From NCBI GenBank assembly GCA_038087875.1, contig CM075990.1, forward strand, positions 17,672,001 through 17,736,000: 64,000 nucleotides of DNA, given 5' to 3'. A model generated the notes under the pieces. That model was not told the DNA's origin. It was given only the letters and a program-made list of their open reading frames with translations, and did not search any database. Position 1 is the first letter of the stretch; each line of letters starts with the position of its first letter. The position numbers were made by a program, and so were the translations under genes. The DNA is from Malacoraja senta. Its lineage: Eukaryota. Below are positions 580 through 64,000 of this stretch, piece after piece.

Positions 580-805
580 CTTAAGATAGACATAAAATGC
601 TGGAGCAACTCAGCAGTTCGGGCATCATCTCCGGAGATGCAGCCTGGCCCACTGAGTTACTCCAGTACTCTGTGAAACGTCACCTATCCATGTTCTCCAC
701 AGATGCTGCCTGACCCGCTGAGTTACTCCAGCACTCTGTGAAACGTCACCTATCCATGTTCTCCACAGATGCTGCCTGACCTGCTGAGTTACTCCAGCAC
801 TCTGG
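580..805 (+). mobile_element. PLE-terminus-derived short element with tandem 66-bp units
   Basis: tgtgaaacgtcacc.. recurs at 671 and 737; shares gctgagttactccagca with the family. Confidence 0.8.
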
Positions 806-1557
806 TGTGTGTTTTTTATTCGTAAGGACCGGGTACCTACCGTCTCTCTCGTGAGTGAAGGGTATTTCTCTCGCCCTCTGGACATCTCTCACAAGATAAG
901 GACCTGAGACAGTGGTCAATCGCTTAGCTCCTGAGTCACTATGACACATGCCACCGTGAGTCTGCCACAGGCCACCACTGCCCTTTACCAGTGTGAAGAT
1001 CAGACAAACATTATCCCGCTTTAACCAGCCAATAATATTTGCGACCTGTTGTTCTTAGCTGAGGATTTTGCGCTGAGTTGGCGATTTACCAAATCACAAA
1101 GTATTAGTCTTTTATCATAATTAGAACGGATCAGTTAAATTCAGGAAGTGATTACATTAATAACACAAACTAACTTGCCAAAGAACTGTGAACTCAGGCA
1201 GGGCTGCTTTACTCTGCAGCTCAAGTTATGAGCATGTGTTATCCTTGCAGCGTGCCTCATTAAACCATTCATTCAACTAAACATTATGTGGAATAACCAC
1301 TAATGCAGGGAGCCTCGAAATCTCCTCTCTCCTTTGAAGTGTAGATTCAGATTCCGTTCATTATTTAATGTTTATAACAATCTGTACAATTCTCGTTACC
1401 TTTTAATATTTGAAGAAATTTGGTATGTTGCTGAATATTCTATCAAACATCTTCATGTCTCAAAAAGGCAGCCAGCATCATCAGAGACCCACACCACCCT
1501 GGCCACGCTCTCATCTCGCTGCTACCATCGGGGGGAAGGTACAGAAGCTGTCTTGAA

Positions 1558-1840
1558 CCTGGAGAAACATGGATAGGTGACGTTTCACAGAGTGCTGGAG
1601 TAACTCAGCGGGTCAGGCAGCATCTGTGGAGAACATGGATAGGTGATGTTTCACAGAGTGCTGGAGTAACTCAGCGGGTCAGGCAGCATCTGTGGAGAAC
1701 ATGGATAGGTGACGTTTCGGGTCAGAAGGCTCCCAATCTGAAGCATCACCTATCCATGTTCTCCAGAGATGCTGCCTGACCCATTGAGTTATTCCAACTA
1801 TGTCGTTTTTGGTAAACTAGCATCTACAGTTCCTCATGTC
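1558..1840 (-). mobile_element. PLE-terminus-derived short element, 66-bp tandem units plus inverted arm
   Basis: agtgctggagtaactcagcggg at 1591 and 1657; reverse complement of the 640-805 array. Confidence 0.8.
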
Positions 1841-2654
1841 ACAGACTTTATGACTAATAGGAGTCAGTTACAGAGCTAGCCCATTGTACAACCACTTTCA
1901 GTGCTTGAGGATTTCCTTCACCAAGATGATGTCTTCTGTTAAATGGGGAAACTGAGCCGTAAGACCAAACCTTAGGCACCTCAATGGCTCTTCCACATAC
2001 ACAGAGAACAATTGTTCCTTTCTCCCTTCTGAAGAGTGAGTGCAGGTGCAACCTGTCAATGCAGCATGTCAGTAGCTCGAAGTGTAGTCTGGCCATGTTG
2101 TACGTCTGATGACCAGTCACCAGCGGCCTTGTGTAGAGACAAGCTTCCTCTCACACAGTCTAGGCTCTGCAAACACAATGGGTCAGGCCAGGAAACAGTG
2201 TTCAAGCTGCCTCGTCAATAATCTGTTTTAATAATATGCAGCGCCTGGTTTTCATTATTGTTCCTCTCACTGACTTTCAAAGGAAATTAAATCATTCCCC
2301 AATTAGTAGCACACCAGGCTCTGTTGTAATCGCTCTGCTTTGTTCCATTAGTGATCAACCAGACTTTCACCCCTCTGCTGACTGAAACTCAGGAGCAGGT
2401 CTGATGGTTTCACTCTAATCCTGGTCACAGAGACCTTCACTGGGTTAGAGTCATACAGCCAGGAAACTGGCCCTTCGGCCCAACTCGGCTATGCTGACCG
2501 AGATACCCCATCTAAACTGGTACTTGCCTATGTTTGGCCCATACCTCTCTAGACCTTTCCCATCCAAATGTCTTTTAAATGTTGCTATAGTACCTGCCTA
2601 AACCACGTCATCTGGCAGCTCGTTCCATACAACCCATCATCCTTCAGTTTATTC

Positions 2655-2852
2655 AGTGGGACAGGCAGCATCTCTGGAGAGAAGGAGTGGGTGACGTTTT
2701 GGTTCGAGACCCTTCTGAAGTCTGAAGAAGGGTCTTGACCCAAAACGTCACCTATTCCTTCTCACCAGAGATGCTGCCTGTCCCCGCTGAGTTACTCCAG
2801 CATTTTGTGTCTATCTTCAGCGTAAACCAGCATCTGCAGTTCCTTCCTACAC
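2655..2852. mobile_element. Palindromic PLE-derived short element (hammerhead core mutated GAAA>AAAA)
   Basis: Inverted arms around tctgaagaagggtcttgaccc. Further family copies (approximate): 12580-12700, 13420-13517, 19435-19560, 21263-21460, 23835-24020, 24180-24540, 26701-26766, 34712-34920, 35090-35140, 36780-36860, 39708-39800, 46712-46805, 47805-47890, 48020-48160, 51085-51230, 55385-55482, 58500-58670, 60408-60582, 63563-63665. Confidence 0.8.
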
Positions 2853-4179
2853 CATTTAGCTTAGTTTTAGTTTAGAGATATAGAGAGGAAACAGGTCCTT
2901 CGGCCCATCGAATCCACACTGACCAGCGATCCCCATGCACTCTGAGTGGAAACATTGGCCTTATCTCCCTGGTGGACTTCGGAAGGGCAGGATACATTGG
3001 GACGGGCCGGAGCGATGCTGTCTTCTCAGAGGCTGGCAGCCAGGCAGAGATACTGAGGGCAAGGCTGAGTCTGGTGAACGGGGAAGGTTCAGGGGGGGAT
3101 AACAGCAACATCAGTCAGCTGTAATATTTCTGAAATCAATTCCCATGGATTGAGATTGGAAACAAGACAGCGAATAACCTGTGCAGTAACAGGCAAACAT
3201 AAACTATAAGAAAAGCACTTTGGACTAAACAATTCATATATTCAGTATCTGTAACAAATGCCCCTAAGCTAGCATTGTAAAACTCTAGCTATTCAGTGGG
3301 ATTGTAAGTCAGTAGAATGGAAAATATCCTTCAACGCACAGCTTCTAAATAATCTGAATTTTCCAATTAATAATTCACAAAGTTATTTGTCTTTCTATTC
3401 TGAACACAACATGTTTGCGTTCAGGCTGTTTGCCACAGAGCCGCTGCATATTCATGCACAGTGCCATGAAGGTGGAATTTACCCTTGTTATCCAAGCTTT
3501 CACATGCTGGCTATTTTCTGGTGCTTAATTCCCCGTAAGTACCCAGGTTGTGTTCAGCATCAGCAGGCAAGTGCAAACCCAATGTCCCCTCATGCATTAC
3601 AGATGAGGGGAAATTTCCACCTCCCCACCAATGCTTCTGACAACATCATCCACCTTCTACTCTGCACGCCAGTCAGTCACACGCATCCAGTTTATCATTA
3701 ACCCTGTAGCAAATTATTCATCGTACCTGAACGTACTAAACCAGACTTTTGATTTAAATTAACATCTATCCAGTTAGATAGTTAGTAAGAAACTGAGGTA
3801 CTTGAGTCATAGTGTCATGGAGCATGGAAACGAGCCCTTCAGCCCAACTCGCCCATGCCGACCAATATGCCCCATCTACGCTCATCCCATTTGCCTGCAT
3901 TGGGCCCATATCCTTTCCTAACTACAGTATGTACCTGTCCAAGTGCATTTATTAAATTCCAATACAATACCTGCCTCAACTACTTCCTCTGGCAGCTTGT
4001 TCCATTTACTAGTTAATATCAGTTCATGCTTCCCTGAATAAAGCCATTGGCCAATATAAATCTGAAGTTTCCACCTTCTTTATTTCTTGACACTCAACAC
4101 TCATTTGACAATTTAATAAGTGTTGCAGTTTTCAAGTGAAGTTCTCCCCTCAGCCTTTCTTTCAACCCATGTCCATAGG

Positions 4180-4690
4180 CAGAGGTTGAATAGGCTGGGA
4201 CTCTATTCCCTGGAGCGCAGGAGGATGAGGGGTGATCTTATAGAGGTGTATAAAATCATGAGAGGAATAGATCGGATAGATACACAGTCTCTTGCCCAGA
4301 GTAGGTGAATCGAGGACCAGAGGACATAGGTTTAAGGTGAAGGGGTAAAGAGTTAATAGGAATCCGAGGAGTAACTTTTTCACACAAAGGGTAGTGGGTG
4401 TATGGAACCAGCTGCTGGAGGAGGTAGTTGACACAAGGACTATCCCATCATTTAAGAAACAGTTAGACAGGTACATGGATAGGACAGGTTTGGAGGAATA
4501 TGGACCAAACGCAGGCAGGTGTGACTAGTGTAGCTGGGACATATTGGCTGGTGTGGGCAAGTTGGGCCGAAGGGCCTGTTTCCACACTGTACCACTCTAT
4601 GACTAGTGTAGCTGGGTCATGTTGGCTAGTATGGGCAAGTTGGGCCAAAGGGCCTGTTTCTACACTGTACCACTCTATGACTATGACTCA
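4180..4690 (+). mobile_element. CR1/HER1 3' fragment with a duplicated 78-bp terminus
   Basis: RLGLYSLERRRMRGDLIEVYKIMRG; tgactagtgtagctggg at 4522 and 4600. Other CR1 3' fragments (approximate): 2445-2640(-), 3800-4005(-), 4955-5330, 6190-6570, 9885-10350(-), 16750-17110, 28765-29005(-), 38355-38850(-), 43880-44195, 47270-47640, 50150-50400(-), 53355-53625(-), 58020-58450(-). Confidence 0.88.
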
Positions 4691-5434: not shown

Positions 5435-5634
5435 NNNNNNNNNNNNNNNNNNNNNNNNNNNNNNNNNNNNNNNNNNNNNNNNNNNNNNNNNNNNNNNNNN
5501 NNNNNNNNNNNNNNNNNNNNNNNNNNNNNNNNNNNNNNNNNNNNNNNNNNNNNNNNNNNNNNNNNNNNNNNNNNNNNNNNNNNNNNNNNNNNNNNNNNNN
5601 NNNNNNNNNNNNNNNNNNNNNNNNNNNNNNNNNN
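5435..5634. other. Assembly gap (200 N)
   Basis: Run of exactly 200 N, a placeholder for unknown length. Confidence 0.99.
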
Positions 5635-6644
5635 GCAGAATTTCTGGAGATAAGGAATGGGTGACGTTTCGGGTTGAGACCCTTCATGGCGAGATTCTGC
5701 CTCAGACCCCAAGTGCACTTGTTGGACAATTTTAACAAATTAGTTTTCTTTTTGCCCTTTGTCTGATCTTTTCCTTTGCAAATGAACATAAACTCTACAG
5801 GAATCCAGGAACATATTATAAACTATCTTTTAAAAATATAATGTTAAATATAATCTTTCATGTTGGAACTTGATACAGCTTTGTTAATAGAGTTTAACAC
5901 TAACCAAGTATATTAATCAGGGTCCAGCCCACATCACTGGCTAACCAGGGTTCTGGGGTGAACAAAGATTTGCTTTGGTTAACCACTGCTGAGCTCTGTA
6001 TCGATGTATTCACTTCCTGTGCAAGTTACAGAGTATTTTATTTTGGTCTTGTACGCAAACATTAAGTTAAATGGCACTGTCAATGTGCAACTTGTTGCAA
6101 TTAGTAAAAATCCCCATGGTGATTCATGTAATCGAGGGTCCTGATCAATTAGGGGCAGGGCTCTCCCTGCAAGGTGTTCCTGAAACCAAGCAGATACAAG
6201 GAAGCCGTGCTGAGACTCTATAGGCCGCTGGAGAATGTGAGCAGTTTTGAGCCACATATCTGAGTTTAGAAACATGAGGGGAAATCTCATTGAAACCTGC
6301 TGAATAGTGAAAAGCCTGGATAGAGTGAATGTGGAGAGGATGTTTACACTAATGGGAGAGTCTAGGACCAGAGACCATAACCTCAGAATTAAAGGATGTT
6401 CCTTTTGGAAGGAGATGAGGAAGAATTTTTTTAGAGGGCGGTGAATCTGTGGAATTCATGCCACAGACGGCTGTGGAGGCCAAGTTAATGGATATTTAAA
6501 AAACAGAGATTGACAGTTTCGTGATTAGTAAAGGTGTCAAGGGTTGCGGGGAGAAGGCAGGAGAATGGAGTTGACTGGAACTGGTTGGCTGGCGATGGAA
6601 TTGGAGAGGTGCCCTGTTGATGAATGAGTGGAGGAGATTTGTCA

Positions 6645-6832: not shown

Positions 6833-6901
6833 GCGGCTCGTGCACCTCGTGGCGTGTCTTCTGCGTGTGATTACGTGACGTGATCTGTTGTTCCCATGCA
6901 G

Positions 6902-10000: not shown

Positions 10001-13000
10001 ATGTACGTCCAAGTCTCTCTTAAATGTTGTGATAGTCCCTGCCTCAACTGCCTCCACTTCTGGCAGCTTGTTCCATACACCCACCACCCTCTTTGTGGAA
10101 AACATTGCCCCTCAGGTTCCTATTAAACCTTTCACCCTCTCACCTTCAACCTGTGTCCTCTGGTTCACTGATTCATAGACTGTGTGTGTTCACCCATTCT
10201 GTTCCCCTTGTGATTTTGTACACCTCTATAAGACATGATTCCTCTCCAAGGAATAAAGTCCCAGCCTGCTCAACCTCTCCCTATAGCTCAGGCACCTCGA
10301 GTCTCGGCAACATCCTCGTAAACGATCTCTGCACTCTATCCAGCTTGAAAATGTTTAGTATTCAATCTGCTTTCTTCAATCTTTTGGCGAATTCTCTGGG
10401 TGGAACAGGTGTTGTTGTTCTTCAGAGAGAGTGCAGGGATGTGGTGCTGCTAAAGGTCCTGGCCACTGCTCCAGCGCAGCAACAACTATGCACTGGGGAA
10501 CTGCACATCGACTCTGCGGATGGGTCTGAATGTGTGCAGTGCATGGGGACATGCGCTGAGAGCAGCATGTGTGGCGTCAAGGTGCTGCGCGACTGCATAA
10601 CGTGTCGGGCATTTCACACGGGGGGTTATTCTCCTCCATTTATTCCATGTTAATCCCAATGTTGCTGATTGTCTTGTTTTGAAGGTTTGCAACCACCAGG
10701 GAGACTGTCACTGTGACCCAGGCTGGGCAAAGCCAGACTGTGCCATGCGGAAGGATGGCCTACCAGGTAGGAATCCAGCCACCACTGGCTGTACCTCAAC
10801 CATACGTACTATCCCTCCTAGCACTAGCTTCCCACACTCACACAAGGACTAGGCAGTCACTGTGTCATTGAGATGTACAGCATGGGAACAGGCCATTCGG
10901 CCCACCATGTGCACGCCAACCAAACTTCTAGATTAGTGCAGGTGTTAAAGATTACAGGGAGAAGGCAGGAGAATGGGAAAAGTAGATCAGCCATGATTGA
11001 ATGGCAGAGTGGACTCAATGGGCTGAATGGCCTAATTCTGTTCCTATGACGGTCACCCATCGCATTAACCCCATCTTCCAGCACCTGGACCCTGGATCTC
11101 ACTCCCTAGGGATTCAAGTGTTTATTGAGACACATCTTAAGCAGAGTGAGGACTCTGTTCCACCAGGCTAATGTTACCATTGACACCAGTAGTATCCTGT
11201 CATGTGGATTGTTTCATGGCTGATCGCTGTGTGACTCTGATCTTGGCACCACGTTATGAGTAGCCTGATGGGGATTCGGTATCTGACGACTGGTTCAATG
11301 CTTGAATGTGAATGGGGAGTGAAGGGGCAAACCAGCTGTTCATGGCGTAATCTGGTAACATACCAAAGAAAAATACTCCTTGCCCACTAGCTTAGTCCGT
11401 GTTGTCTCTAGCCAACGTTCAGTGAATATTTTCCCTGCTTCCCTCGTTTTTAGATGATTGGAAGTCCATCCCATGCGAAGCCGCAGTTGATTTAGTGTTG
11501 TCTTGCCACATGTGGACAGTTGCATTATGTATGTACTCGCTCTCAAGAAACACCAGCAGGTTTTGTCATGGGGCTTGGAGCTTTGAGGAATGGCATTGAT
11601 CTCACACTCTGCTCTGCCTGTACAGTTTCAACAGCTGATGTGGTCAACTTGAGTTCATTTGTAGTTTTCCTTCCAGTGAGCGATGGAGTGACAATCATTG
11701 TCGTCTGGGCGTTGGTGCCTTTCTTCGTTCTACTCATTCTCATTAGTGGCGGACTTCTATATTACAAAGGATGCTTAATGAAGAAATATATCAAAAAAAT
11801 GTGAGTACTGATTTGTTTCCCCAAATTATCCCCATGTTATTGGATATTTTAACAATACATAATTTACGTTTAATATCGCTCAGTAATTTGGAGATTTTGT
11901 GGACGCATGCAATTCGAAGAAGCCAGCAGTACTTTTCTGGTATTATGAATACTTAATCCAATGTATCCATTTGAAGAACATCCAGGCTCACGCGCACATT
12001 CCCACATTCCCACATCCCACAAATGGCAGCTGACTGACCTTATACCTCTTGTGTTTCTCTGCACCCCCCAGACAACATCAATGGCACAGAACTCTGCTGA
12101 TCTCTGTTTTGAATGAACAGTGACTGTTCCTCTGCCGTCTTACTGGTTACAAAATCCCAAAGATCCCACCAGAACAATCTGTAATGAGCTGGGAATTGAG
12201 TTGAAACTAAAAGCTACACTTGAATTGTGATCAGAAGGCTTGGTTGAATCAGTAATAATCCAGAGATACTGAAGCAAATGTGGTCATCTTTGTTTCTCCA
12301 CTCTACCAGGAGAACAAAATACATATATTGGTTTTTTTAAATCTGTGGTTAATCTACAGGAAGTGAGTTCTGAAATTAAAAGTACATGCAAACAGGAATG
12401 AAATCCATGACTAACCACTGTGGTCACATGCACTCACTTTGGTACAATTCAGTAGAAGCTTCCTTGGTACAGCGTTAGATTTATTTTATATGTGAACATT
12501 TGAGCGTCGACCTCATCTGAAATTGCACACCTTCATTCAACAAAGTTTGGGACAAAGTTGGAAATTTCCAAACAATTCCTGGGTTGGAAAGAACTGCAGA
12601 TGCCGGTTTAAATCGAAGGTAGACATAAAATGCTGGAGTAACTCAGCGGGACAGGCAGCATCTCTGGAGAGAAGGAATGGGTGATGTTTCGGGTTCTTAA
12701 TACCTGGGTTACTATAAATTGTTCCGGTGAGATATTGGGATTTTGCAGCCAATCAGGTTGTATGGGCTTAGTCATCCAAAATGGACATTGATGGAATTCT
12801 GGCCTATCAGGGTGTGGAACCTCAGGGTAGGGGGGGGGGGGGGGGTCGTACAGAGACACGTCAAGGCTGTGATATTGTGCTCAAGAGCCTGAGGCATGTA
12901 CACTGCTGTTTTCATGCCTGACTCTGCAGGTAGACCCCAGAGCCTGTAAACCCTCCAGAACACAGCACGCCCCGTCCGTTTGTCCTTTGTCCTGTAGAAG

Positions 13001-25507: not shown

Positions 25508-28500
25508 GTGCGGCTGGAGAGCGGTGCAGTAACAGCGGGTCGGGCAGCGTCTCCGGAGAGAGAGAATGGGCGACGTTTCTGGTCGACACCCTTCTTTAGA
25601 CAGAGTCAGGGGAGAGGGAAACGAGCGGTTATAGACGGTGATGTGGAGAGATATAGAACAAATGAAGGAAAGATATACAAAAAGTAACGATGATCAAGGA
25701 AAGATGGAGCCCACAACGGTCCATTGTTGGCTGTGGGGAGGGTGATAACGAGTTATACAGACAATGAAACTCAACAGGAAGACAGTAAAACTAGTATAAC
25801 AACTCGGAATGTGGAGGGACGGAGAGAGGGGGATTCAAGGGTTACAAAATTAGATAGATTAATATTCATACCGCTGTCCAAGCAAAAGATGAGATGCTGC
25901 TCCTCCAATTTGCATTTGGCCTCATTCTGACAATGGAGGAGGCCCAGGACAGAAAGGTCAGTGTGGGAATGGGAGGGGAAGATCGGCCCAGCTCTACCTT
26001 GCTTGTGACACCAGGCTCACCATGTGGTTGACTCAAATGCCTTCTGAAATGGTCTATCAAGCCGTTCAGTTCAAAAGTAATTAGAGATAGGCAGGAAGAG
26101 CTACTACTGTCCAAATTCCAATCTGTAAAAGCATAAATAAGGGCCTTTAATTGGGTACATTCTTGGTAAACCAGCCAAGCTGTGATAGGGCCACCTTCTG
26201 TTCACCATCTCATTGTTATAGCCATGCATAGGTTTTTAATGATTTGCATATGAAAAGCACAAGATACAATGGGAGATAGATTTATGGGTGCGCTGATTAT
26301 ATTGGATCTTGTCTGTAGACTGCACAGTTTGGAATATTGTAGCCATAGTAACTCTGATTTATCCGGTGCATCTTAGGTAAATCATTCCTAGTAATCATCT
26401 TTTGTGTGAAGAAATGGATTTATACTGTTTTGAGTGTGATAACTTTATAAAACAAGCTTTGACAAAAGTGTTGATAAACTTGGCTTATGAACCGTCTGGT
26501 AACAGACCATTCATTGCTATTGATTATTGTAAATCAAATATCAATTAATTTCCTTTTTTACTCTTTAGTTATGGTTGCAGAAGTGGTGAAGCACTTTTTG
26601 CCCAGACTGATAGAACTGCACAACTATATCCCAGCAAATGCTACCCAGCAAAAACTAAGTAACTGGCAGTTATTAAACAGGCAAGTGCACTGATAATTAA
26701 CAGTCTGAAGAAGGGTCTCGGCCCGAAATGTCACCCATTCCATCTCTCCAGAGATCCTGCCTGTCCCTTGGTTAAATCCCTCCCTACCTATGTTCAAGAC
26801 ACCTCAGACACTCTCCGTCGTCTCCGCGCATATCATTCTCTAGGCCCCCATCCTCTCATCTTCACCATGGACGTCCAGTCACTCTACACCTCCATCCCCT
26901 ACCAGGATGGTCTCAAAGCCCTCCGGTTCTTCCTCGACCGGAGAAGCAACCTATACCCGTCCACTGATACTCTCCTCCGCCTAGCGGAGTTGGTCCTTAC
27001 CCTCAATAACTTCTTGTTTGACTCCTCCCATTTCCTCCAAACACAAGGCGTAGCTATGGGCACGCGCATGGGCCCCAGCTACGCCTGCCTCTTTGTCGGG
27101 TACGTAGAACAATCCTTGTTCGAGGCGTACCAGGGCCCCATCTCCGACCTCTACCTCCGCTACATCGACGATTGCTTTGGTGCTACCTCCTGCACCCACA
27201 CACAACTGACTGACTTCATCCGCTTCATCACTAACTTCCATCCGGCACTCAAATACACCTGGACCATTTCCGACACTTCCCTACCATTCCTTGACCTCAC
27301 TATCTCCATCGCAGGTGATAGACCTTTGACCGACATCCACTATAAACCCACTGACTCCCATGGCTATCTAGACCACTCTTCTTCCCACCCTGCTTCCTGT
27401 AAGGACTCCATCCCCTATTCCCAATTCCTCCGTCTACGCCACATCTGCTCCCAGGATGAGGTGTTCCACACCAGGGCATCGGAAATGTCCTCATTCTTCA
27501 GGGAACGGGGGTTCCCCTCCCCTACTATAGATGAGGATTGCAACAGGGTCTCTTCCATACCCCGTAACACTGCTCTCTCTCCCCATCCCCCCACTCGCAA
27601 CAAGGGCAGAGTCCCCCTAGTCCTCACCTTTCACCCCACTAGCCGTCACATACAACAAGTGATCCTCCGTCAGTTTCGCTACCTCCAACGTGACCCCACC
27701 ACTCGCCACATCTTCCCATCTCCCTCCCTGTCTGCCTTCCGCAAAGACCACTCCCTCCATAACCCCCTTGTCAATTCTTCCCTTCCCTCCCGCACCACCC
27801 CCTCCCCGGGTACTTTCCCTTACAACCGCAAGAGATGCTACACTTGTGTAGATGTCAGCTGATCTACATCGGTGAGACCAAGCGTAGGCTTGGCGATCGT
27901 TTCGCCGAACACCTCCGCTCGGTCCGCATTAACCAACCTGACCTCCCGGTGGCTCAGCACTTCAACTCCCCCTCCCATTCCGTATCCGACCTCTCTGTCC
28001 TGGGCCCCCTCCATGGCCAGAGTGAGCACCACCGGAAATTGGAGGAGCAGCACCTCATATTCAACTTGGGGAGTCTGCATCCTGGTTGCATGAACATTGA
28101 ATTCTCACAATTCTGTTAGCCCTTGCTGTCTCCTCCCCTTCCCAGCTCTCCCTCAGCCCTCAGGCTCCTCCTCCTCCTTTTTCCTTTCTTCTCCCCGCCC
28201 CCTCCCACCCCCCATCAGTCTGAAGAAGGGTTTCGGCCCTAAACGTTGCCTATTTCCTTCGCTCCATAGATGCTGCTGCACTCGCTGAGTTTCTCCAGCA
28301 TTTTTGTGTACCTGGGATTTTCCAGCATCTGCAGTTCCTTCTTAAACATCCTGCCTGTCCTGCTGAGTTACTCCAGCATGACTGATAATTCACACTTTGC
28401 TGTCTGCTACAAACTGGTTTTGCTTTGCAGCGGGCCCACCATTTTGGCCTTTCCAATTGAACATACTGAAAAGAAAAGAAAAATAAGTTGGAATTAGTGG

Positions 28501-34500: not shown

Positions 34501-37500
34501 CATGCACAATCTACGGTAATTTCATTCTATTCCCCAGATTACATTCATGTCGGCATGCCTCAATTTGCAAACGGATGCCAATCCAAACCACAACCATGGA
34601 ACAACAATCAAAGGTATTTAAGAATACGATGTTCTTCCTATTGATTTAAATTATCTGTCACCTATTATAGATGATCGAGTAACTATGCTCACCCACCTAG
34701 ACTTACCATAAGTGTTGAAAGGAACTGCTGATATTGGTTTACTTTGAAGATAGACACAAATTTCTGGGGTAACTCAGTGGGACAGGTAGCATCTCTGGAT
34801 GGAAGGAATGAGTGACATTTCGGGTTGGGTTCTAAAGAAGGGTGTAGACTCGAAACATCAGCCATTCCTTCTATCGACAGATGCTGCCTGTCCCGCTGAG
34901 TTACTCCAGCATCTATCTTACCATAACAGTGTTGGAAGTTACCTTTCCTGGGAAACTGAAGGGAGCGACAATCAACTGCCACGGATACAAATAATGTCAT
35001 ACACAAGAAAGGGCAGATGCTGGTTGACAAAAAGTGAACACACAGTGCTGGAGTAATACAAAGACACAGCAGAATTTTGGAAACGTCATCCCGTCACCCA
35101 TTCCTTCTCTCCAGAGATGCTGCCTGTCCCGCTGAGTTAAAGAGTGCCCACGGTAGACTCACGAGTCACTACGGTAAACTCACGGGCTACTACGTTCTTA
35201 CAACGAGTTTAAAAGTTTACAATTTTTATTCAAGAGTAAATTTGACTCGTGGAAATCTTTCATCATGTTGAAAGATTTGCACGAGTTAGCAAGTTTCCCG
35301 AGTACCTGCCGTTAGCGTTACGAGTTCCGACGTTCCCGCTACGTTAATTCTACGTGATTACCACGAGTTTGATTTGTTTTAAACTCGGGATCACTCGTGG
35401 GTGGACTCGCAACGTGAGACAGGGGTTTTAGTTCTATGTTTGAAGTTCAGTAATCCCCAAGTTAAGAATGCTACATTTCTTCTAGAGTGGACAGAATAGA
35501 TTGATTTAAATTCATTTTCTAGTTTGTCAGTCCTGAGAATAATTGGCATGAGAACGGGCGATTGTTGCTAGTTGTTGGGGTGCAGTGTTTGGAATGTGTA
35601 CTCTGTATTTAACTTGTTCTGGCCCTGGCCCAGGAGTGTTTAATGGTGAAGATGTGAGAAAATGATCTCTTCACTAAAGCAAAAGTAACAGAATTTTCCA
35701 GATCATCAAAGTTCAGTTAGCTTTGCGGGTTTCTATACAAACATCTGTATTTAATTTCAAAATTATCTGCCGATTGTATTCAATTTTATAATTCTTCCAG
35801 GCAGTGCTAAAACGATTCATATTCTTTTGCATTCTGAACTTGGATAGTTTCAGACGGGTTCTCCCGGTGACACGGGATGTATTTGTACCTCAGCCAACAT
35901 CACTGTCGGCTTCAGAGTAGCAGTAAAGATCTTGGTGTAGCAATGTATTACCCTTTTTATGATAGAGCTGCTGGTCTTCTCCTATCTGTGTGGAGTTTGC
36001 ACATTCCCGTGTCTCTGTGAGTGTTCTTGAAAGCTCTGGTTTCCTCCCACATTCACAAACCTGCTGATAAATAGTTTATTGTAAACCACCCCCTGGACAG
36101 TGGTTTGGGGAGTTGATGGGCTGAAGAGAAAGTAGTGTACAGGAAAATAAGTAGAGGAATGCATTGATGGGATTTCTCTGAGAGCCAGCATTGACTAAAA
36201 GGGCTGAATGGCCTCCTTCTGTCTTATGGATATAATACAGTATGTAGCAACACATGCATTGAGCTCCATTTTGATAGACCCATTGAATCAATGTTTATCT
36301 TACACGAGAGCATGAACATCTCGGGGTTCTGTCACTGGTCAGAGTAACTGGAATGTTCCTCGTTATTATGGGTGTTGTTCTGTTGCTGCACTGTCAACAT
36401 CACGGCTGTGATAGTTCATTGTCCATCAACAACGTTGGATCTCCTAAAAGACAAGATGTAAAAAACAGATCATTTTTTTAATTTTTCATTGAATTTAACC
36501 AAAGAGGTTCCCTGCCACAACCTGCTCAATCATCAATTGCTGTTTATGCTTTCGACTCTGCAAATTGTTCATTCTTAATCATTGGGTCTGAGGAAGGAAG
36601 TGAACCAGTCTAATGGCCAGCTGGTTCCTATAGTTCTGCTGCCACAATTCCACCTTGCTCTCCGCACTGTTGAACTAGCTCACTGAAGTCTGGTCAGTAT
36701 AAATTATCTCAGGAAGTAGAGGCGTTGATGGGCTAACTTTATAATTGCATCAGTGTATTGGATCCAAGAAAGATCTTCAGAGATAGACACAAAAAGCTGG
36801 AGTAACTCAGCGGGACAGACCACATCTCTGGAGAGAAGGAATGGGTGATGTTTCGGGTCGAGATATGCGCAACCAGGAATTTGAAACTTTTGACTCTCTT
36901 CACCATCGTCCCGTCGATATAGACTGGTTTTTGGGTCCTCATCCTTCTTCTTCCAAAGTCCACAATCAGTTCCCTGGTCTTACTGTTCATGCACTGCATT
37001 CCTGGTGGTAAATTATCCTATGAGTGAGTTTCCCTTGCCTCACTGGTTTTAGATCATTGTGTGAGCAGTACTCCCACTTGGATCCTGCCGTACGTTTCTT
37101 GCTAGAGGAGAAAGATCAGGCTCTGTTGGCTTTCCGGGAGACTGTGGAGGTAAGCAATCAGTCGCCTTTATCTCCGACGTAGTACTGCTGTCAGCTGGCA
37201 CCGTTGGTAACGATTGTCACTGCCCCTGCTCCGAGACCGTGCAGCACAGTTAGTGTGGCCAGAGCAAATGCTGTCAGACGGTTGTGTTTGGTGGAGCTGC
37301 AGGAAGCAGTGACCACACATGCCATGCAAGGTCATCTGACATCCACCCCCACAGCAGGGCTGCTAATACTGGAGGGCACAGGTTTAGGGGAGAGGGGAGA
37401 GATTCAAAAGAATCACAGGGTGGAGGGTGGTGGTTGTGTGGAGCGAGCAGCCAGAGGAGGTGGTGGAGGCAGGTACTATGCCAAGGTTTGAAAGGCTTTG

Positions 37501-39078: not shown

Positions 39079-40609
39079 TAGTAACTAAACTGAGAGAAAC
39101 CATGAACATCTCTGTGTGGGCAAAGATTTGATAAAGCTTCTCTCTGTTTATGTTGAAGCACCTGATGTGTGTCTGCGTGATTTGTCACTGGGATTAAAGT
39201 GGTGCAGGTTTGTAGGTTAAATGGTCCAGTGGGCAGGGAGTGGATGAGAAGGTGGGATAACATGGAACTGGTGTTATCAATGGTTAGCATGCACTCGGTG
39301 GGCCAAAGACCCATTTTGTATCTCTAAACTAAACAAACACTGAGTTAAGTTATAACAGGGTTGATTCAAACAGGGTTTAATCCACAAACCTGTAGGACTT
39401 GGACTATGCAGGAAGTGACATTATCAAAGACAGGACAGGAGGCAGTGCTGCAGTGTTAGCTTCTTCTTCTTCTACTTCTTCTTTCGTGTGGCATACACAG
39501 CCTAAAGTTGTTGGACAACTTGTTCTATTTGATCTTCCGTTTGTGCAAGTCGAGTTGATTGCATTAGTCGAAACAGGGCGGACCACGTGAAGGTTGCAAT
39601 CTTCCACCCCGCAGTGTTAGCTCATGGCCCTGTTCCCACTCCCACTTCCCCCTCACCATTATCCCCACAGGAATGCTGTGCCCGATGAGCCATTTGGTGT
39701 TCAGGATAGTCTGAAATAGGGTCTCGACCCGAAACGTCACCAATTCCTTCTCTCCAGAGATGCTGCCTGTCCCGCTGAGTTACTCCAGCTTTTTGTGCCT
39801 ACTGTTGGTGTTCAGGATCCCCAGCTAACCAAAGGAATGTGGGAACTCCATGGTTCTAAACTTGCCTGGTTGCCAAAGCTGCAGAAGTCTGGAGGAAGGC
39901 AAATTCTTTGCATGATTGCTGTGAGCGTGGTCAGCATGGAAATATGAACATGTAATTATGTTTCTCCCCATGAGAAGGGTTACTGAGCCTTCCTCTCAAT
40001 TGTTACCATGCATCAGAGATTTGCAAAAATAAGCAACAAATCTCTGAACCCCTTAATAAGCGCCCAGCACTTCCAGTTATGTGAACTTTATATTTACATT
40101 TTGAAGCTCCGAGCTTATAAATTCCACATGGTTTACGTATGGATTAAACTCCTAAAATAACATTTTTTAGAAAAATATTCTTCTGTAAATAAGCAAGTTT
40201 TATTAATAATAATTATCTGAACATTCCTTTTATTACGATTTTGTGAAATCTGTACATGTTTTGTTGCAAACTTTACAAATGTTCCACCAATCAAACTGCC
40301 ATTTAAGTCTTGGGTCAATAGGATTTGCTAACTGTCGGAGACATTGTTAGAGATTAGGAGGATCGCTTCAACTGTAGCTTTAATAATTGTGGAAATATTT
40401 CCCAGCAGACAAATAATCCATTGCAACTTCTCAGGGGAAACAACTCTGGGAACGGAGATCTCTCGTCTACAGTGGAGAGACAACAACACACTGTCCGATC
40501 CCCAGTGATGTGAGTAATTGTGACCAGAGACAAACTTGGCCTTGTGTACTGACGCACTCTGACTGAGGACACACAGACTGACTTGACTGATACTAGGGTG
40601 GTAACAAAG

Positions 40610-46012: not shown

Positions 46013-48224
46013 TTACAGTCTTCTTAAGAATTAGACTACGTTATTTTCAACTTCCTGTTTCCTAATCTAACGACTTTGCACCTTGTTTTTCAGTTGAAGC
46101 GGTTTGCATCTGTTCCAGGAACTAACCGCATTCATCATTAAATGCTGCTGACGAGTTCTCAGGTCGGTAACCAGCGTTTGAGCAGATAAGATAGCAAAGA
46201 TAATATCAAAATGAGAGCTGTCAAAATCCTGACACTTCAGGGAAATTACAGACAAGAGATCTTGTATCCGCTGCATGCAGGTTTTCCCTCAGTCAACCAA
46301 CCGAGGGTGCTCAGGGTCCAGACCACCTACCTGCGTATTAGACCTCAGCTCTGGCCTAAATGTCACCCCGACCAAGCCCGAGACCAAAGAGCAGCATCTG
46401 CCCAAGTCTGATCCAATGGGTACCCGGCCCATGAGGTTTCCCGGACTCCATCTCACTAGTACCACCACCCACATTAGATGCTTCTGAACTCGCTCCTTGA
46501 TGCAGTTTCCTCCCACACTCTAAATCCCTACAGGTTTGTGGGCTAATTGGGCTTCTGTAATTCAGGGATGTGATTCCCCCTCATCTATTCCCAGTTTCAA
46601 GCCCCTCCCCTTCCATTCCCGGTGCGACCCGTTCTCTTTGATGGGAGATCTCACAAACGTTGACCAATGTAGTTCAGCCAACACTGTGCAGCCAACAGCC
46701 GTGGCGACTGGCAGTCGGAAGAAGGGTCCCGTCCTGAAACGCCACCTATTCCTTTTCTCCACAGATGCTGCCTGACCCGCTGAGTTACTCCAGCACTCTG
46801 TGTCTGTCCTGGTGACCAGTGGCTGCCGATAGCCTGGTGGGGTGGAGGTTGTGTCGGGCTGTGGTACAGCTCGCAAGCTCTCTCAGTACATGTGGCTGGG
46901 ATACAGTTACTCACTCACAGCCTGACTCAGACCTCCACAGCTGAGACACTCGGCCTTCCTGCAATAAGTGCTTTTAAAACAGGAAATGCAAACAACTGGA
47001 ACCGATCAGTTTATTTTTTTCCAGTGCTGAGATCGCCAGCAATGAGGACGGACAGCTCGAGGGGGGCAAGGACTGTGGGAAAGGGACTGGGGTCAGGAAA
47101 CCAGGAGTCAGACAATAAATTCACATCGCAGCTAATCATTGTAGGCGGCAGCTACTGGTCTTCACTGAGTCCTGGTGGGGAGATGAGGTTTCCACACAGC
47201 TAGGCACAGAGGATTGGGCAATGATTGGTCCTGTGACTGGTGCTGACATGTGGACAATGGCAACATCACCAAATGCCCTGACGAAGAGAGGGATCACAGG
47301 GTCCACAATCCATGAGAGTGGCTATAGAAGTAGATAGAGTGGTAAACAAGGCTTATGGTATGCTTGCCTTCATAGACCGGGACATTGTTTGTTTTCACTG
47401 GGCGGAAATGTCAAAGACCAGAGGATACAGCTTTAAGGTGAGGGGGAAATTTAAAGGTTTACGGGGAGGTGGTGGAGGCAGATACAATAGTGATGTTTGA
47501 GGGGCTTTTACAGGCACATGGATATGCACGGAATGGAGGGATGTGGATCACGTGCAGGCAGAGGGGACTCCTAACGGCATCGTGTTGGGCACAGACATTG
47601 TGGGCCGAAGGGCCTGTTCCTGTGCTGTTCTGTGTTCTTTATCCGAGGTAGACTGTATTCACGGGGACAATGCGCTGCCCTGGGGGTGGGGGGGGGGGGG
47701 GGCAGGACATTTGAACTGAAAAGCTGTGAAGTTTCCAGGAAGAAAATATCTCAGAAAGTTAAATCTCCATTGCTGAAAGTCTGAGGTCGCCCATGATTTA
47801 TGGAAGATAGACACAAACATCTGGAGTAACTCAGCGGGACATGCAGCATCTCTGGAGAGAAGGAATGGGAGACGTTTCGGGTCTCGACCCCTCTGCTGCC
47901 CCACTTGGTGTCAGGAGTGGCCGGGGGGGGGGGGGGGGGGGCGGAGCCTGTGCGCTCACGGTCAGCTGCTCCACCTGGCGGCGAGATGCGGGACATGCAG
48001 CGCACTCAACGTGACGGAGGGAACTGCAGATGTTATTTTAAACCGAAGATACAAACTGCTGGAGTAACTCAGCGGGACAGGCAGCATCTGTGGAGAGAAG
48101 GAATGGGAGACGTTTCGGGTCGACACCCTTCAACCGGTCTGAAGAAAGCTCTCGACCCACAACATGTATGTGACCCTAACGTAGAACCGAGCCGTCCCTG
48201 TGCGCAGACTGGAGGGAGGGAGCT

Positions 48225-48761: not shown

Positions 48762-57364
<8,603 letters not shown>

Positions 57365-57770: not shown

Positions 57771-59469
57771 TCCATGCCTACACTATCTTGGATTTTCACA
57801 CTTTAAGTCCACATTATGATCAGAGTTGTTCATTAACGCTGCGATAAATATAAAATACTCATCAAACATAACAACCTGCGTCTTCAAATCAGGCCCAGCA
57901 CTCCCGGTGTAAGCACATCCGTACATCCCAGTGTTCCCGAGATCATGGATACATCCAGGATCTCCAGCTGAGATCATTGATAACTACCCAGGGCGTCTGT
58001 GGGATAATAGAGCCATTTGACAGGCCCTTCGGCCCAACATGTCCCACCTACCTGCATTCGGCCCATATCCCGCTAAACCTGTCCTATCCATGTACCTGTC
58101 CAAAATGTTTCTTAAAAGTTACAGTACCCCCTCCTCTGCAGCTCATTCCATACACTCACAACCCTCTGTGTAAAAAAAGGTTGTCGCTCAGTTTCCTATA
58201 AAATCTTTCCCCCCTCACCTTAAACCTGTGTGCTCAGGTTCTTGAATCCACTACTCTAGGTAAAAGACTGAGCATTTACCTCTCATGATCTTATACACCT
58301 CTGTAACATCACCCCTCATCTTCCTGCACTCGAGGGAATAAAGTCCTAGCCTGCTCAACCTCTCCCTATAGCTCAGCCCCACAAGCCCTGGCAACATCCT
58401 CAGAAATCTGTGCTCCCTTTGCAACTTAACAACATGGTGACCAAAACTGATGACAATACTGTAAATGATGGAGCTCTCCCCACAGTCTGATCTAACTGCT
58501 GACACAAAGTGCTGGAGTAACTCAGGGGGTCAGGCAGCATCTGAAGAAGATTTTTTGAAGGGTAACGACCCAGACGTCACCTATCCACCTTTTCCAAAGA
58601 TAGTCCTGACCCGCTGAGCTACTCCAGAACTTTGTGTCTTGTTTTGTAAACCAGCATCTGCAGTTTCTTGTGGCTCCATTTACTGGCGATGGCCGTGGAC
58701 ACCTACAGCAGAAGGCAACTCCACACCAGCACCTCATGGGATTCAGCCCATCCAGTGAATGGATTAACACATAACACAGCGAGCCAGACAACTGGCATGG
58801 ACATCTCCTGTCCTGAGCAGGTTTACTGGATTTCTGAGATCTTTCCTGGTTTATTAAAGCTGCTCTGATGGATGTGAGTTCATGCTGGTGAATGGGCCTA
58901 CGACACTAGGGTCCAGAGATCCCACCCTTCACAGTTCCCCCAGTGCTTGACACGCAGCTCGTCACCTTGGATCAAGTGCGGGGGTTGGGGTGTTGAGTTT
59001 GTAACTCTGTGAGCATGGTGTGAGATGGGATGGTGGTGAGCAGCTGACCACCCAGCTCTGCATTGCAGCACAACCCTACAGGGAACACAATCTGCCTAAT
59101 TAGTCATCGGCTGGCAGGGAGTGTGACCCTGCACAATCCTGCAGAGCAATCCGCGCCTCCCAAGGCTCCTGTACCTGCTCTGAAATATTCATCATTGCTG
59201 TCTTCCTGTCCGCGTTCTGGGAAATGGCTGTTTGCTGCAATGAAATGCAGGCAATGGAAAGATGAAAAGTCCCAATTCATGATGCAATTACCCAGCTGTC
59301 AGAGAGGAACCATTTAAATGTCTACACCTATTTTGTTTCAACTGATTAAGATAGATTAAAATCTGAAACAGATCCAATTTGATGCTGCTTGTACACCAAG
59401 TTCACACAGAGCTGTTATTTTCAGCTGTGGAGAGTTTGCTGTAAAGAATTGCAACTCGAGTATAGTTTG

Positions 59470-60730
59470 AACAGAGAATACTACAGCACAGGAACAGGCT
59501 AAAGCCCACCAAACATGGTGCCAAAATAACCTAGTCCCCTCTGCCTGCACGTGATCCATGTCTCTCCATTCCCTGCACTTCCATCAAATGCCCCGATTGT
59601 ATCTGCCTCCACCACTGCCCCTGGCAGTGCGTTCCAGGCACCCATGGGGTCACATTGCACCACGGGGTCACAGTGCACCACGGGGTCACAGGGGTCACAC
59701 TGCACTACGGGATCACAGTGCACCACAGGGTCACACTTCATCATTGCATGCAGAACAACATGTCCAATCTACACAAGTCTCGTTAGCCTGCATTTGGCCC
59801 ATATCCCTCTAAGCCTGTCCTATCATTGTATCTGTGCGGTGTCCTTTAAATGTTGTTATAAGCCCAGCCTCAACTACATCCTCTGGCAGCATGTTCCACA
59901 TACCCACCACCCTCTGTGTGGAAATTGTTGACACTCTCACCTCCAACCTATGTCCTCTGGCTCTTGATTCCCCTACTGTGGGTAAAAGACTCGGTGCACT
60001 CACCCAATCTATTCTCCTCATGCTTATACAGCTCCACGATCACCTCTCATCCTCCTACACTCAAAGGAATAAAGCATTGGCCTGCTCAATCTCTCCCTGT
60101 AACTCAGGCCCTCGAGTCCTGACAACCTCCCCATAAATCTCTGCACCTTTTCCAGCTTAATTATATCCTAATGGTACCAAAGCTGAAGACAATACTCTAA
60201 ATACGACCTCACCAACATCTTGTACAGCTGTAACATAATGTCCCACATTCTATATTCAATACCCTGACTGATGAAGGGCAATGTGCAGAAAGCCTTCTTG
60301 ACACCTTATCTCCCTGTGATGCGACATTCAAGCAACTATGTACTCCTAGATCCCTCTGCTCTACAACACTCCCCAGAGCCCTGCCATTCACCGTGCAGAT
60401 CCTGCCCTGGACAAAAGGAATAGGTGACGTTTGGTATTGAGACTCTTCAGTCTGAAGCAGGGTCTTGACTTGAACCGTCACCTATTCCCTTTGTCCAGAG
60501 ATGCTGCCTGACCCACTGAGTTACTCCAGCTTTTTGTGTTTATCTTCCGTTTAAACCAGCATCGGCAGTTCCTTCCTGCACATCAAGGTGCCCAAAATGC
60601 ACCTCACACCTATCTGCATTGAAGTCCATTAGCCATTCCTCAGCCCAACTGATCAACATCCTGCTGTAATATTTGATAACCATCTTCACTGCCTACACCA
60701 CCCACTTTAACATCATCAGCAAATTTACTA
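59470..60730 (-). mobile_element. Degenerate CR1 LINE fragments with a nested PLE-derived element (60408-60582) and an 18-bp minisatellite (59645-59740)
   Basis: Reverse-complement CR1 3' motifs (cccaccaccctctgtgtg, cttgattcccctact), VVEQRDLGV. Confidence 0.85.
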
Positions 60731-61219
60731 ATCATGTAAATCATTTATATAAACCACAAACAGTCGGAAACACAACCTTCCACCAACACCCCTGGTCCCT
60801 TCCATGAAGCTGCTTCTGTGCAGGCAGCGAGACTAACCCTGTGTCCCTGGTGAGAGAGTAGGAGGTGTGTGGAGCAAGGGGGCTGTGTCCTAGTGCAGAC
60901 AGACGGACACAAACTCATTCCATGGCGGATCAACTGCACCCCGAATAAACCAGAAGCTCAACGGCAGCTAATTACATTGATCCTGTAATTGCATAAAACC
61001 TTACACCCACTGATTCTTTTCAAATCCTTAATTGCTGCTTGGAAACCCGGCAGATCCCTGTGGGTGGGAAGCTGTTAGTTCCTGTCTCGTTAAATATTTG
61101 CTTTGTAAATATTTATAAGGTGAGTGTGTAGTTTCTCATCACATGAATAACATCTCCAAGGAATTTGGTTCCTGACACAACGCTTTTGGCATTGTTAAAA
61201 AGGGAAGAATAAAATGCTT

Positions 61220-63365
61220 GGGCATCTGTTATAACAAGGAAAGGAAGGGTCCGAGATGGATTCTTGGAGCATCTTGTAGCGGAGCCAACCAGGGAAAAGG
61301 CAATTTTGGATTTTGTGTTATGTAATGAACTGGATTTGATAAAGGAACTCAAGGTAAAGGAACCATTATGAGGTAGCGACCCAATATGATAAGTTTTATT
61401 CTGCAATTTGACAGAGAGAAGGTCAAATTGGATGTGTCGGTTTTGCAGCTGAGCAAAGGGAACTACAGAGGCATGAGGGAGGAGCCGGCCAAAGTTGACT
61501 GGAAAGGGACCCTAGCAGGGATGGCGGTGGAACAGCAATAGCAGGAGTTTCTGGGAATAATCCGGAAGATGCAGGATCTTTTCATTCCAAAGAGGAAGAG
61601 AGATTCTAGGGGAAGAAAGTGGCGATCGCGGCTGACAAGGGAACTAAAACTAAAAGAAAATGCATATAACATAGCAACGGTTAGTGGGAAGCCAGAGGAT
61701 TGGGAAGCTTTTAAAGAACAACAGAAGGTGACTAAAAAGACAATACGGGGAGAAAAGATGAAATACGAAGGTAAGCTAACCAATAATATAAAAGAGGCTA
61801 GCAAGAGTTTCTGCTCTCGGTTGCAGGGATGTGCTGCAATGCAGAGCTGGGTGGTCAGCTGCTCACCACAAGCAAGAAAGAGGCAAGAGTGGACATTGGA
61901 CTGCTGGAGAATGATGCAGGAGACATGATAATGGGGAATAAAGAAATGGCAGAGGAGTTTGAATAACGTTTTTGCATCAGTCTTCACAGTGGAAGACACC
62001 AGCAAAAGCCTGAAATTCAAGAGAGTCAGGGGGTTGGAAGTTAGTGGAGTGGCTATTACCAGGGAGAAGGTGCTTGGGATTGTGGAGGCATTAATAGTAA
62101 TATTTAAAGAATCACTCGAGTCAGGAGTGGTCCCAGACGATTGGAAAATGGCCAATGTTACCCTGCTGCACAAGAAGGGAGTGAGGCAGAATAGTGGGAA
62201 CTACAGGTCTGACTTTGGTGGTTGGTACGATTTTAGTCCATTATAAAGGATGAGGTTACGGAGTACTTAGAAGTTCACAATACAATATGCCGAAGTCAGT
62301 GTAGCTTTGTGAAGGGGATGTCTTGCTTGACAAATTTGCTGGAATTCTTTGAAGAAGTAAATAGCAGGACAAAGGAGAGTCAGTAGATGTTGTTTACTTA
62401 GATTTTCAAGAAAGCCTTTGATAAGGTGCCACGTTAGGCTGCTTAGGAAGATGAGAGCCCATGGTATCAAAGGGCAGATACTAGCCTGGATAGCAGGTTG
62501 GCTCGATGGCAGAAGGCAAAGAGTGGCAATAAAGGGGCCTTTTTCTGGTTGGCTGCCAGTGACTAGCGGAGTTCCGCAGAGGTCAGTGCTGGGGCCACTA
62601 CTCTTCACGTTGTATATTAATGATTTGGACGAGGGGATTGAAGGCTTTGTGGCCAAGTTTGCAGATGATCCAAAAATAGGTGGAGAGGCAGGTAGTGTAG
62701 AGAAAACAGGGACTCTGCAGCAGGACTTGGACAGGTTGGGAGAGTGGGCAGAGAAGTGGCAGATGGAATATAGTGTGGCAAAGTGTGGAGTCATGCATTT
62801 TGGTAGTAGGAATAAAGGTGTAGACTATCCAGAAATCGGAGGTGCAAAGGGACTTGGGAGCTGGTGCAGGATTCCCAAAAAGTTAATCTGCAAGTCGAAT
62901 CGGTAGTAAAGAAGGCACACTCAATGCGAGCATTTATTTCAATAGGTTGATATACAAAATCAGGGCTGTAATGCTGAGGCTCTATAATGTGCTGGTAAGG
63001 CCACATTTGGAATATTGTGAGGAATTTTGGGCACCATAATCTGAGGAAGGATGTGCTGCCGCTGGAGAGGGTCCAGAGGAGGTTTACAAGAATGATCCCA
63101 GGAATGTGCAAGTTAACCTATGATGAGCGTTTGTCAGCACTGGGCCTGTACTCACTGGAGTTTAGAAAAATGAGGGGGGACCTCATTGAAACATACTTAA
63201 TAGTGAAATGCTTGGATAGAGTGGTGGAGAGGATGTTTCCACTAGTGGGAGAGTCGAGGATTAGAGGTCACAGCCTCAGAATTAAAGAACGTGCTTTTCG
63301 GAAGGAGATGAGGAGGAATTTCTTTAGTCAGAGGGTGGTGAAGCCGTGGAATTCTTTGCCACGGA
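61220..63365 (+). mobile_element. Degenerate CR1 LINE ORF2 (end of APE endonuclease through RT; many frameshifts)
   Basis: WKMANVTLLHKKG, SGVPQRSVLGPLLFTLYINDL, AKFADD, LERVQRRFTRMIPG in shifting frames. Confidence 0.92.
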
Positions 63366-64000
63366 ACGCTGAGACAGACCAGGTCCTGTGTAATTACTGC
63401 TCGGGAGAGCAGGCAGCGCCCGGGGGAGTTCTCCCTCGCTGCTCCAGAGAACATACACGGAGAGAGCAAGGTTGTCACGGCAGCGCCGCGCAGTGCGTTT
63501 AAACAGAGTGAAACTCACCATAGCTCGTTGACAGCAGCCTAGCTTTGTCTGAGTCTGTCCCTCAGTCTGAAGAAGGGTCTCGACCCGAAACATCACCCAT
63601 TCCTTCTCTCCACAGACGCTGCCTGACCCGCTGAGTTACTCCAGCATTGTGTGTCTGTCTTCAGCGTGGCGCAGCCTCCCTGGAGCACAGCAGGGTCCTA
63701 GCGCCCGCCCTTCACCCCTGCCCCACTTTACCTTGCAAAAAAAACAGACGCAAAATAAAACATACATAAATCCACACGCAAAATGCAGTGGCAACATTCA
63801 CTGTAAAAAGTTCTCAAACTATTACTTTCGGGTTTGCGGGGTTAATCGAGCAGCAGGACTGGAGGCGGCAGCAGCAGCAGTGTCGGCGCTGGCCTGCAGA
63901 GGGCAGCCTCTCCCCGCTTGCTGAAAAACTCAACAAATGCATACCCACACACCAGAGGTCACACACACCCACACACCAGGGGTCACACACACCCAGACAC

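Follow-up and report, generated by a model that had tools for sequence, protein, structure and literature searches.

The 64-kb window of Malacoraja senta analysed here (positions 17,672,001 to 17,736,000 of contig CM075990.1) contains a dense family of short, dispersed repeats that carry the hammerhead-bearing terminus of Penelope-like elements (PLEs) and that were probably left behind by aborted integration of autonomous PLEs. A profile built from 17 hand-picked arms matched the window 43 times at E<=0.1 and the reversed window, which served as the control, not once. We grouped these matches into 28 insertions, namely 18 single copies and 10 inverted pairs, plus two weak hits (24370-24401 and 35032-35061) that were excluded. 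The sequence-only reading of this stretch had counted about 20 copies; the repeats are real, and profile search raises their number. Together, they cover 3,235 bp (5.1% of the window, or one insertion per 2.3 kb), and 25 of the 28 insertions contain no coding sequence, as the earlier description of a high-density, non-coding family had it. For comparison, the one family of tRNA-derived short interspersed elements (SINEs) tested is represented by 13 BLAST pieces (approximately 11 insertions), so the suggestion that the family may rival tRNA SINEs holds up in the window. The lack of RNA polymerase III (Pol III) boxes was correctly noted as well: neither an A box nor a B box was found near the head of the consensus, whereas the control B box (at most one mismatch) was detected in 6/6 tRNA-SINE heads. 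ARAGORN found no tRNA.

Target-site duplications (TSDs) of 10-16 bp, with a score of at least 9, bracket 7 of 27 insertions, compared with 5 of 700 mismatched flank pairs that served as the null (the copy at 5635 abuts an N gap and was left out). This excess implies that the insertions are independent events of the retrotransposition type. The family extends far beyond the window. When contigs from four sequencing runs were aligned to the interval 15040-15400, 144,914 contigs from run X1 and 174,885 from run X3, a relative, were placed on it, which shows that the family is very large and common to relatives. The summed depth, which is a rough measure and not a copy number, is about 11-fold higher over the terminus block than over the endonuclease (EN) block in X1 and 15-18-fold higher in X3, in agreement with the small share (3/28) of insertions in the window that are linked to an open reading frame (ORF). 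A dip in contig depth over the hammerhead was dismissed, given that the reference copy at 15068-15349 has a mutated core. Exact-pattern searches of viral, metagenome and prokaryote collections found no copy.

Coding elements with the same terminus

In three insertions, which represent three PLE lineages denoted A, B and C, the terminus directly follows EN-coding sequence, which substantiates the proposed derivation from a Penelope terminus. Lineage A is represented by a 5'-truncated copy on the plus strand (26768..28347, 13-bp TSD) that consists of a reverse transcriptase (RT) fragment (26768-27859), the EN C-terminus up to 28119 with the GIY-motif stretch missing, a putative intron (28115-28218), the hammerhead (28218-28249) and a tail that runs to 28347. 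The RT fragment, found by tblastn with homologs in which an RT and a GIY-YIG domain occur together, is 85% identical to a protein of Leucoraja erinacea and 77% identical to one of Amblyraja radiata, and the longer homologs combine the RT with a C-terminal GIY-YIG domain. The CX2-5CxxC linker between RT and EN, a feature of Neptune and Nematis (PMC8557442), was found in the close homolog P0014; the PLE copy of the window has it too, but its first Cys is altered. No full-length elasmobranch PLE protein turned up in the protein searches.

The lineage B copy (15068..15349, minus strand, 5'-truncated) comprises the EN C-terminus, a putative 96-nt intron (15256-15161) and a hammerhead with core mutations; the lineage C copy (25525..25981, minus strand, 5'-truncated) comprises the EN C-terminus, a putative pyrimidine-rich intron of about 245 nt and a decayed hammerhead. 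Their distances from the consensus of the short copies are 5.3% for B, 14.8% for C and 17.4% for A, within a range of 0-26% across 40 arms, and the lineage B copy carries the diagnostic alleles of that consensus. Accordingly, the picture of a single Penelope copy ending in the same motif at 28216-28347 needs to be modified: this segment is a PLE terminus, but it belongs to a divergent lineage, 17% from the consensus, and the two other ORF-linked copies, including the one closest to the short elements, had been overlooked.

The lineage A copy is inserted in a short copy (26701..26767 and 28348..28382, plus strand) that retains all 12 core positions and is flanked by an outer 14-bp TSD, so that in this nested arrangement (26701-28382) each element has its own TSD. 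PLE termini may be preferred insertion targets.

Hammerhead motif and its decay

Coordinates within the element are counted from C3 of the hammerhead core, with the predicted cut between +27 and +28; the hammerhead numbering and the consensuses of splice sites, initiators and Pol III boxes are the standard ones. At the sequence level, the consensus bears out the hammerhead noted earlier and conforms to the minimal type I form of PLEs (PMC4209133), with CUGAAGA, one extra A and GAAA. Helix II has 4 bp and is capped by a tetraloop, helix III is the palindrome ACGU, and helix I has just 2 bp. Helix II forms in predicted folds. Rfam cmscan detected no hammerhead family at E<=1; the best match, to Plasmodium RUF6-5 (45 bits, gathering score 70), was rejected as the palindrome at 21261-21458 folding as a hairpin. 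Minimum free energy folding of the dimer did not produce the hammerhead fold, and the predicted folds of five single arms did not stand out (z scores between -2.2 and +0.7).

Among the 15 arms that span the core, five keep all 12 core positions, and these are the copies that had been singled out as intact, at 13516(-), 23930, 26705, 55387 and 63567. The label fits their cores better than their helices: in three of the five, the palindromic helix III pair is lost through CpG decay, and core and helix III are both kept only at 23930 and 55387 (2/15). These two arms and the consensus thereby show the complete pattern of the type (CUGANGA, an extra base, helix II closed by G-C, GAAA, palindromic 15.2-16.2 and UH). 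The cores listed as mutated at 2722, 28220, 34832, 39711, 46716 and 60452 are indeed so; the one at 21362 is not intact either, but here it is the inversion junction that removed C3. In lineage A, the changes in the hammerhead, compared by eye, preserve pairing (U-A to U-G in helix II and A-U to G-U in helix I).

To compare divergence, 40 arms were aligned, CpG sites and 13 subfamily-diagnostic columns were dropped, and six arms (three tandem units that were redundant, the lineage A arm and two from divergent subtypes) were left out of the test. Changes affect 14 of 223 core cells and 102 of 1466 cells in the downstream neighbourhood (p=0.78), compared with 48 of 214 CpG cells. Selection on the ribozyme in the copies, an idea implicit in the sequence-only reading, therefore finds no support, and the copies decay neutrally once inserted. 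The best-conserved stretch lies elsewhere, at +62..+77 (14 changes in 417 cells), where a small hairpin may be a candidate protein-binding site. We also observed that positions +47..+54 of the consensus are complementary to +106..+113 in the tail and are paired in three folded tail-bearing copies; such pairing could define two start sites of reverse transcription.

Among 43 related PLE RT loci from metagenomes, six matches resembling the minimal hammerhead were found (L004, L007, L008, L009, L015 and L032), five of them downstream of the RT on the same strand. The flanks of the six motifs are unrelated and show no pyrimidine tract with CAG before the core; these loci are too distant to inform the splice-site interpretation discussed below.

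The 5' boundary, inverted pairs and tandem units

The 5' ends of 20 of the 38 arms fall within a 14-nt window, -8..+5, at the 5' edge of the hammerhead, although each end, taken from local alignments, is uncertain by a few bases. The stop rate per base is 0.11 within this window, 0.007 downstream of it and 0.002 upstream. The short single copies illustrate the pattern. Those with ends in or next to the boundary are 13422..13516 (minus strand; end at C3, 12-bp TSD, core intact, helix III pair lost), 55386..55483 (plus; -1, core and helix III intact), 39708..39801 (plus; -3, 14-bp TSD, core mutated), 46712..46808 (plus; -4, core mutated), 19442..19558 (minus; -6, with a tail), 63559..63664 (plus; -8 to -5, with an intact core but without the helix III pair), 47803..47894 (minus; +4) and 5635..5685 (minus; +5, with the 3' part lost in the N gap). 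Ends further downstream are found in 36781..36863 (minus; +11), the old copy 31869..31940 (minus; +15), 12583..12694 (minus; +16, with a tail and a 12-bp TSD) and two fragments, 35092..35139 (plus; +24) and 33195..33258 (minus; +68, with a tail). A lineage C-type short copy (51080..51228, minus) ends upstream, between -22 and -42, and keeps part of the pyrimidine tract. By contrast with this boundary, ends at the cleavage site are not enriched (three events in +24..+30, p=0.18).

This boundary is real and not a limit of alignment: three copies that end within -8..+5 are bracketed by TSDs, 11 such arms abut their inverted counterpart, and pyrimidines make up 40-62% of the 40 bases that precede 12 short single copies. 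In the long copies, the 60 bases before the boundary contain 75-88% pyrimidine (at least 80% is reached in 0.7% of window stretches), the polypyrimidine tract ends in CAG before the core, and a GT is located at the stop codon of the ORF. The lineage B copy reads AT at the donor, but the donor G (15256) is the majority letter in the contigs, with 85% of the X1 depth; the lineage C acceptor reads CTG, and its short relative at 51195 has CAG. We infer that the boundary coincides with the 3' splice site of a retained intron of approximately 96-245 nt in the pseudo-long terminal repeat (pLTR), given that in Drosophila virilis Penelope the pLTR intron ends at helix I of the hammerhead (PMC4209133). 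In D. virilis, transcription starts 46 nt upstream of that intron (PMC2377424); by analogy, the short copies would lack a promoter. Spliced templates are not indicated because the short copies share no upstream exon sequence. Eight of the nine listed contig pieces that run past the head of the element stop between +1 and -6. This is a weak hint, since the nine are a handful among some 248,000 and the tract may prevent other subfamilies from aligning.

In all 10 inverted pairs, the arms are arranged head-to-head, with the 3' tails facing outward, rather than tail-to-tail as previously described. A tail is present on exactly one arm in nine of the 10 pairs and on both arms in none; the inversion junction and the arm lengths differ in every pair, and the two members of a pair frequently resemble each other no more than they resemble other copies. 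The 3' ends form two classes, at about +91..+98 and +122..+133. The tail is on the right arm in the pairs at 2653..2852 (right only), 24222..24340 (both arms heavily truncated), 58499..58682 and 60407..60590, on the left arm in those at 21261..21458 (left only), 23832..24018 (16-bp TSD around the whole pair; core and helix III intact in the right arm) and 34712..34918 (10-bp TSD around the whole), and on the long, minus-strand arm in the pair at 48016..48163.

The remaining two pairs include tandem arrays. At 578..811, an inverted arm adjoins 2.7 tandem 66-bp units of a subtype denoted C1 (628-811), and at 1556..1834, 2.4 tandem 66-bp units on the minus strand (1560-1727) adjoin an inverted arm with a tail. 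Each unit covers approximately +20 to +86, without CUGAAGA or helix II; hence the repeated unit is no ribozyme, which corrects the earlier description of tandem multimers. The two arrays face each other 750 bp apart and differ at 0-3 positions per unit, in unrelated flanks; either gene conversion or a young subtype would account for this near-identity. A similar unit junction was seen among the letters between contig joints of run X23, and the 66-bp duplication may be a family trait.

Origin of the short elements

The hammerheads of PLE termini, their dispersed truncated copies, head-to-head pairs and tails have all been published, which makes the family as such unexceptional. Earlier work describes solo and inverted pLTRs from EN-containing PLEs with minimal type I hammerheads (PMC4209133, PMC3846280, PMC8557442); the skate elements share with them the minimal core with an extra base after A9, the G10.1-C11.1 pair, the palindromic helix III, the prevalence of dispersed single motifs, ascribed there to truncated PLEs, the head-to-head inverted copies, the optional tail of 30-40 nt at one end and TSDs of about 10 bp. 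Head-to-head is the most frequent inverted arrangement of PLEs (PMC3846280), and a tail at one end only is described for them as well (PMC3846280, PMC8557442). D. virilis Penelope resembles the skate elements in the 2-bp helix I, the tail repeat and an intron 3' end that abuts helix I, the latter being a prediction in the skate; its intron is 75 nt long, unlike the 96-245 nt predicted here. What differs from known pLTRs is the density in the window, which greatly exceeds the 4,000-9,000 motifs that coelacanth and Xenopus are reported to have per genome. Our literature search, with most subscription papers outside its reach, returned no paper that deals with the PLE termini of skates or describes a 5' stop at a pLTR splice site.

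We consider it most likely (probability of roughly 0.72) that the short elements arose through abortive integration by several lineages of autonomous PLEs, probably of the Neptune/Nematis type to judge by the linker. Under this scenario, the PLE protein would bind its RNA just downstream of the hammerhead and nick the target, and reverse transcription would start at one of two internal sites, producing 3' ends at +91..+98 or +122..+133. The two classes of 3' ends are observed here, and the binding and start mechanism is borrowed from Poseidon of Anolis carolinensis (PAc), in which the RT starts internally at two sites that mark the ends of the tail, with uncleaved RNA serving as its main substrate (PMC11167929). 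The skate family is similar to PAc in having two classes of 3' ends about 100-130 nt past the hammerhead and in using an uncleaved template, which follows from the fact that most copies span the cut site. It is unlike PAc in that the linker appears to be of the Neptune/Nematis and not the Poseidon type and in that the first ATG, at +49, lies outside the core. In about nine of 10 events, synthesis halts within about 130 nt, mostly at -8..+5. The likeliest cause of the stop would be a roadblock on unspliced nuclear RNA, posed either by factors at the 3' splice site or by the C-rich tract; the fold of the hammerhead and a dimer of the RNA are lesser options. PAc primes both strands in vitro (PMC11167929), and the skate pairs can be likened to the products of such a reaction: when both target strands prime, two short cDNAs would join into a head-to-head pair with one tail, the two-primer step being our conjecture.

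Several observations weigh against this interpretation, beginning with its restriction to a single window. The ends do not form the smooth continuum expected of truncation: in a scan statistic that allows for the post-hoc choice of the window, four null models produced a clustering of 20 of 38 ends in 0-3 of 20,000 simulations and, for the singles alone with 9 of 18 ends in that 14-nt window, in 1-61 of 20,000. A defined 5' end of the RNA would produce the same clustering. The PAc RT passes through its own hammerhead in vitro (PMC11167929), unlike the stop hotspot in the skate, where a block would have to be cellular or specific to the lineage. Among the 15 joints listed of 135 in the contigs, none corresponds to splicing of the putative intron. 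No ORF-linked copy in the window belongs to subtype C1. In lineage A, the frame that begins with the ATG at +49 stays open throughout the tail, and the B-type copies have an in-frame stop; the peptide from this ATG has no match among 240 fetched proteins. Finally, when the diagnostic columns are kept, the core looks better conserved than its neighbours (14/223 vs 200/1775, p=0.02). The 13 diagnostic columns all lie outside the core, in line with constraint that acts on the source elements and not on the copies; such constraint would be expected for autonomous PLEs, too.

A more novel alternative, although we regard it as rather unlikely, is that skate genomes contain PLE-derived inserts of 95-135 nt in very large numbers, with a 5' end set at the 3' splice site of the pLTR or the hammerhead edge, being either a self-propagating, hammerhead-bearing equivalent of a SINE that dispenses with Pol III and is transcribed from an initiator at -3, or products of dimeric templates. 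In the dimeric version, RNAs paired through helix III would template both strands and stall the RT, and the role of the hammerhead would be structural and non-cleaving.

The SINE-like possibility in its strongest form, a non-autonomous PLE parasite that propagates itself, appears unlikely. Here, the short loci or an autonomous pLTR would give rise to an RNA polymerase II transcript from about -3, and a PLE protein acting in trans would start internally and run off the 5' end of the RNA, yielding units of 95-135 nt. Such a transcript would explain the sharp boundary (20/38 arm ends in 14 nt), TSD-bracketed units that start at 0, -3 and -4, and the 25 of 28 insertions without coding sequence, as well as the in-frame stop in the B-type termini and the abundance of C1 among loose ends in all four contig runs, yet without an ORF-linked copy in the window. 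The TCAGT at about -3 presumably qualifies as a match to the initiator consensus. That pLTR sequence suffices for mobilisation in trans (PMC3846280) and that the RT runs off the 5' end of its template in vitro (PMC11167929) also fit. However, the 5' ends are ragged over 14 nt, and five of the seven non-ORF arms that end at -3 or beyond match the element further upstream, above chance for an RNA that starts at -3. In three lineages, these bases can be taken just as readily for a 3' splice site and its pyrimidine tract, and a tree of 31 arms, of low power, contains no supported clade of short copies only (0/28 inner branches starred). The sequence-only reading had set a distinct parasite against plain 5'-truncated Penelope insertions. 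The dominant short type shares its terminus with an ORF-linked copy, and the core is conserved no better than its neighbours, both of which largely favour the latter; the sharp 5' boundary, a feature that reading had not mentioned, and C1 leave some room for the former.

Origin as a non-LTR retrozyme, the "retrozyme-like" part of the earlier description, is very improbable. Tandem units would self-cleave, circularise and be reinserted by the PLE RT, and the hammerhead motif and two tandem arrays of nearly identical units (0-3 differences in 66 bp) are at hand; retrozymes have been proposed to derive from pLTRs and are reported in one chondrichthyan genome (bioRxiv 10.64898/2026.07.22.740005). 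The resemblance extends to a non-coding nature, a type I hammerhead and a relation to pLTRs (PMC7229834, bioRxiv 10.64898/2026.07.22.740005). Nevertheless, retrozymes consist of tandem units of 150-450 bp, each with a complete, mostly canonical ribozyme, and form circular RNA, whereas the core is missing from the skate units, and most of the copies occur as dispersed monomers or inverted pairs. No tandem unit in the window includes a whole ribozyme, let alone the two complete ones taken as diagnostic (bioRxiv 10.64898/2026.07.22.740005); the hammerhead is of the minimal, non-canonical PLE type with a 2-bp helix I; and most copies contain an uncleaved site, without the excess of 5' ends at the cut that self-cleavage would leave. 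A DNA transposon akin to miniature inverted-repeat transposable elements, with terminal inverted repeats borrowed from the PLE end and moving as a palindrome, is hardly credible: inverted pairs make up 10 of 28 insertions and two are TSD-bracketed, but they match the head-to-head arrangement described for pLTRs, with junctions and arm lengths different in each pair, a tail confined to one arm, TSDs of variable length (10-16 bp) and arms often no nearer to each other than to other copies.

The importance of the family may lie in its scale and in the stop hotspot. At the density of the window, the genome would hold hundreds of thousands of fossil insertions, which would allow RT start sites, the stop site and inversion junctions to be mapped computationally, and the hotspot may reveal how PLEs replicate. 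If the copies propagated themselves, they would constitute a SINE-like class without a Pol III promoter.

Some of the insertions lie close to genes. The lineage C copy ends about 20 bases from the apparent 5' splice site of an exon located in 25400-25530, whose peptide we take to resemble a SPEF1-like N-terminus; this copy keeps CpGs that are lost elsewhere. The region 50621-57364 holds the exons of a gene for an O-methyltransferase, presumably COMTD1-like (its match to Pfam Methyltransf_3, at E=0.003, is below the cutoff), and the introns of this gene harbour two short copies and several GC-rich minisatellites. A 407-aa open frame of a long interspersed element (LINE) RT is located at 51236-52456 (RVT_1, E=5e-21) and is, we assume, CR1-like; many short 3' fragments of related LINEs are scattered in the window. 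Another LINE RT fragment, which we take to be Rex/Babar-like, at 33934-34521 on the minus strand, matches RVT_1 and ALKBH8_N.

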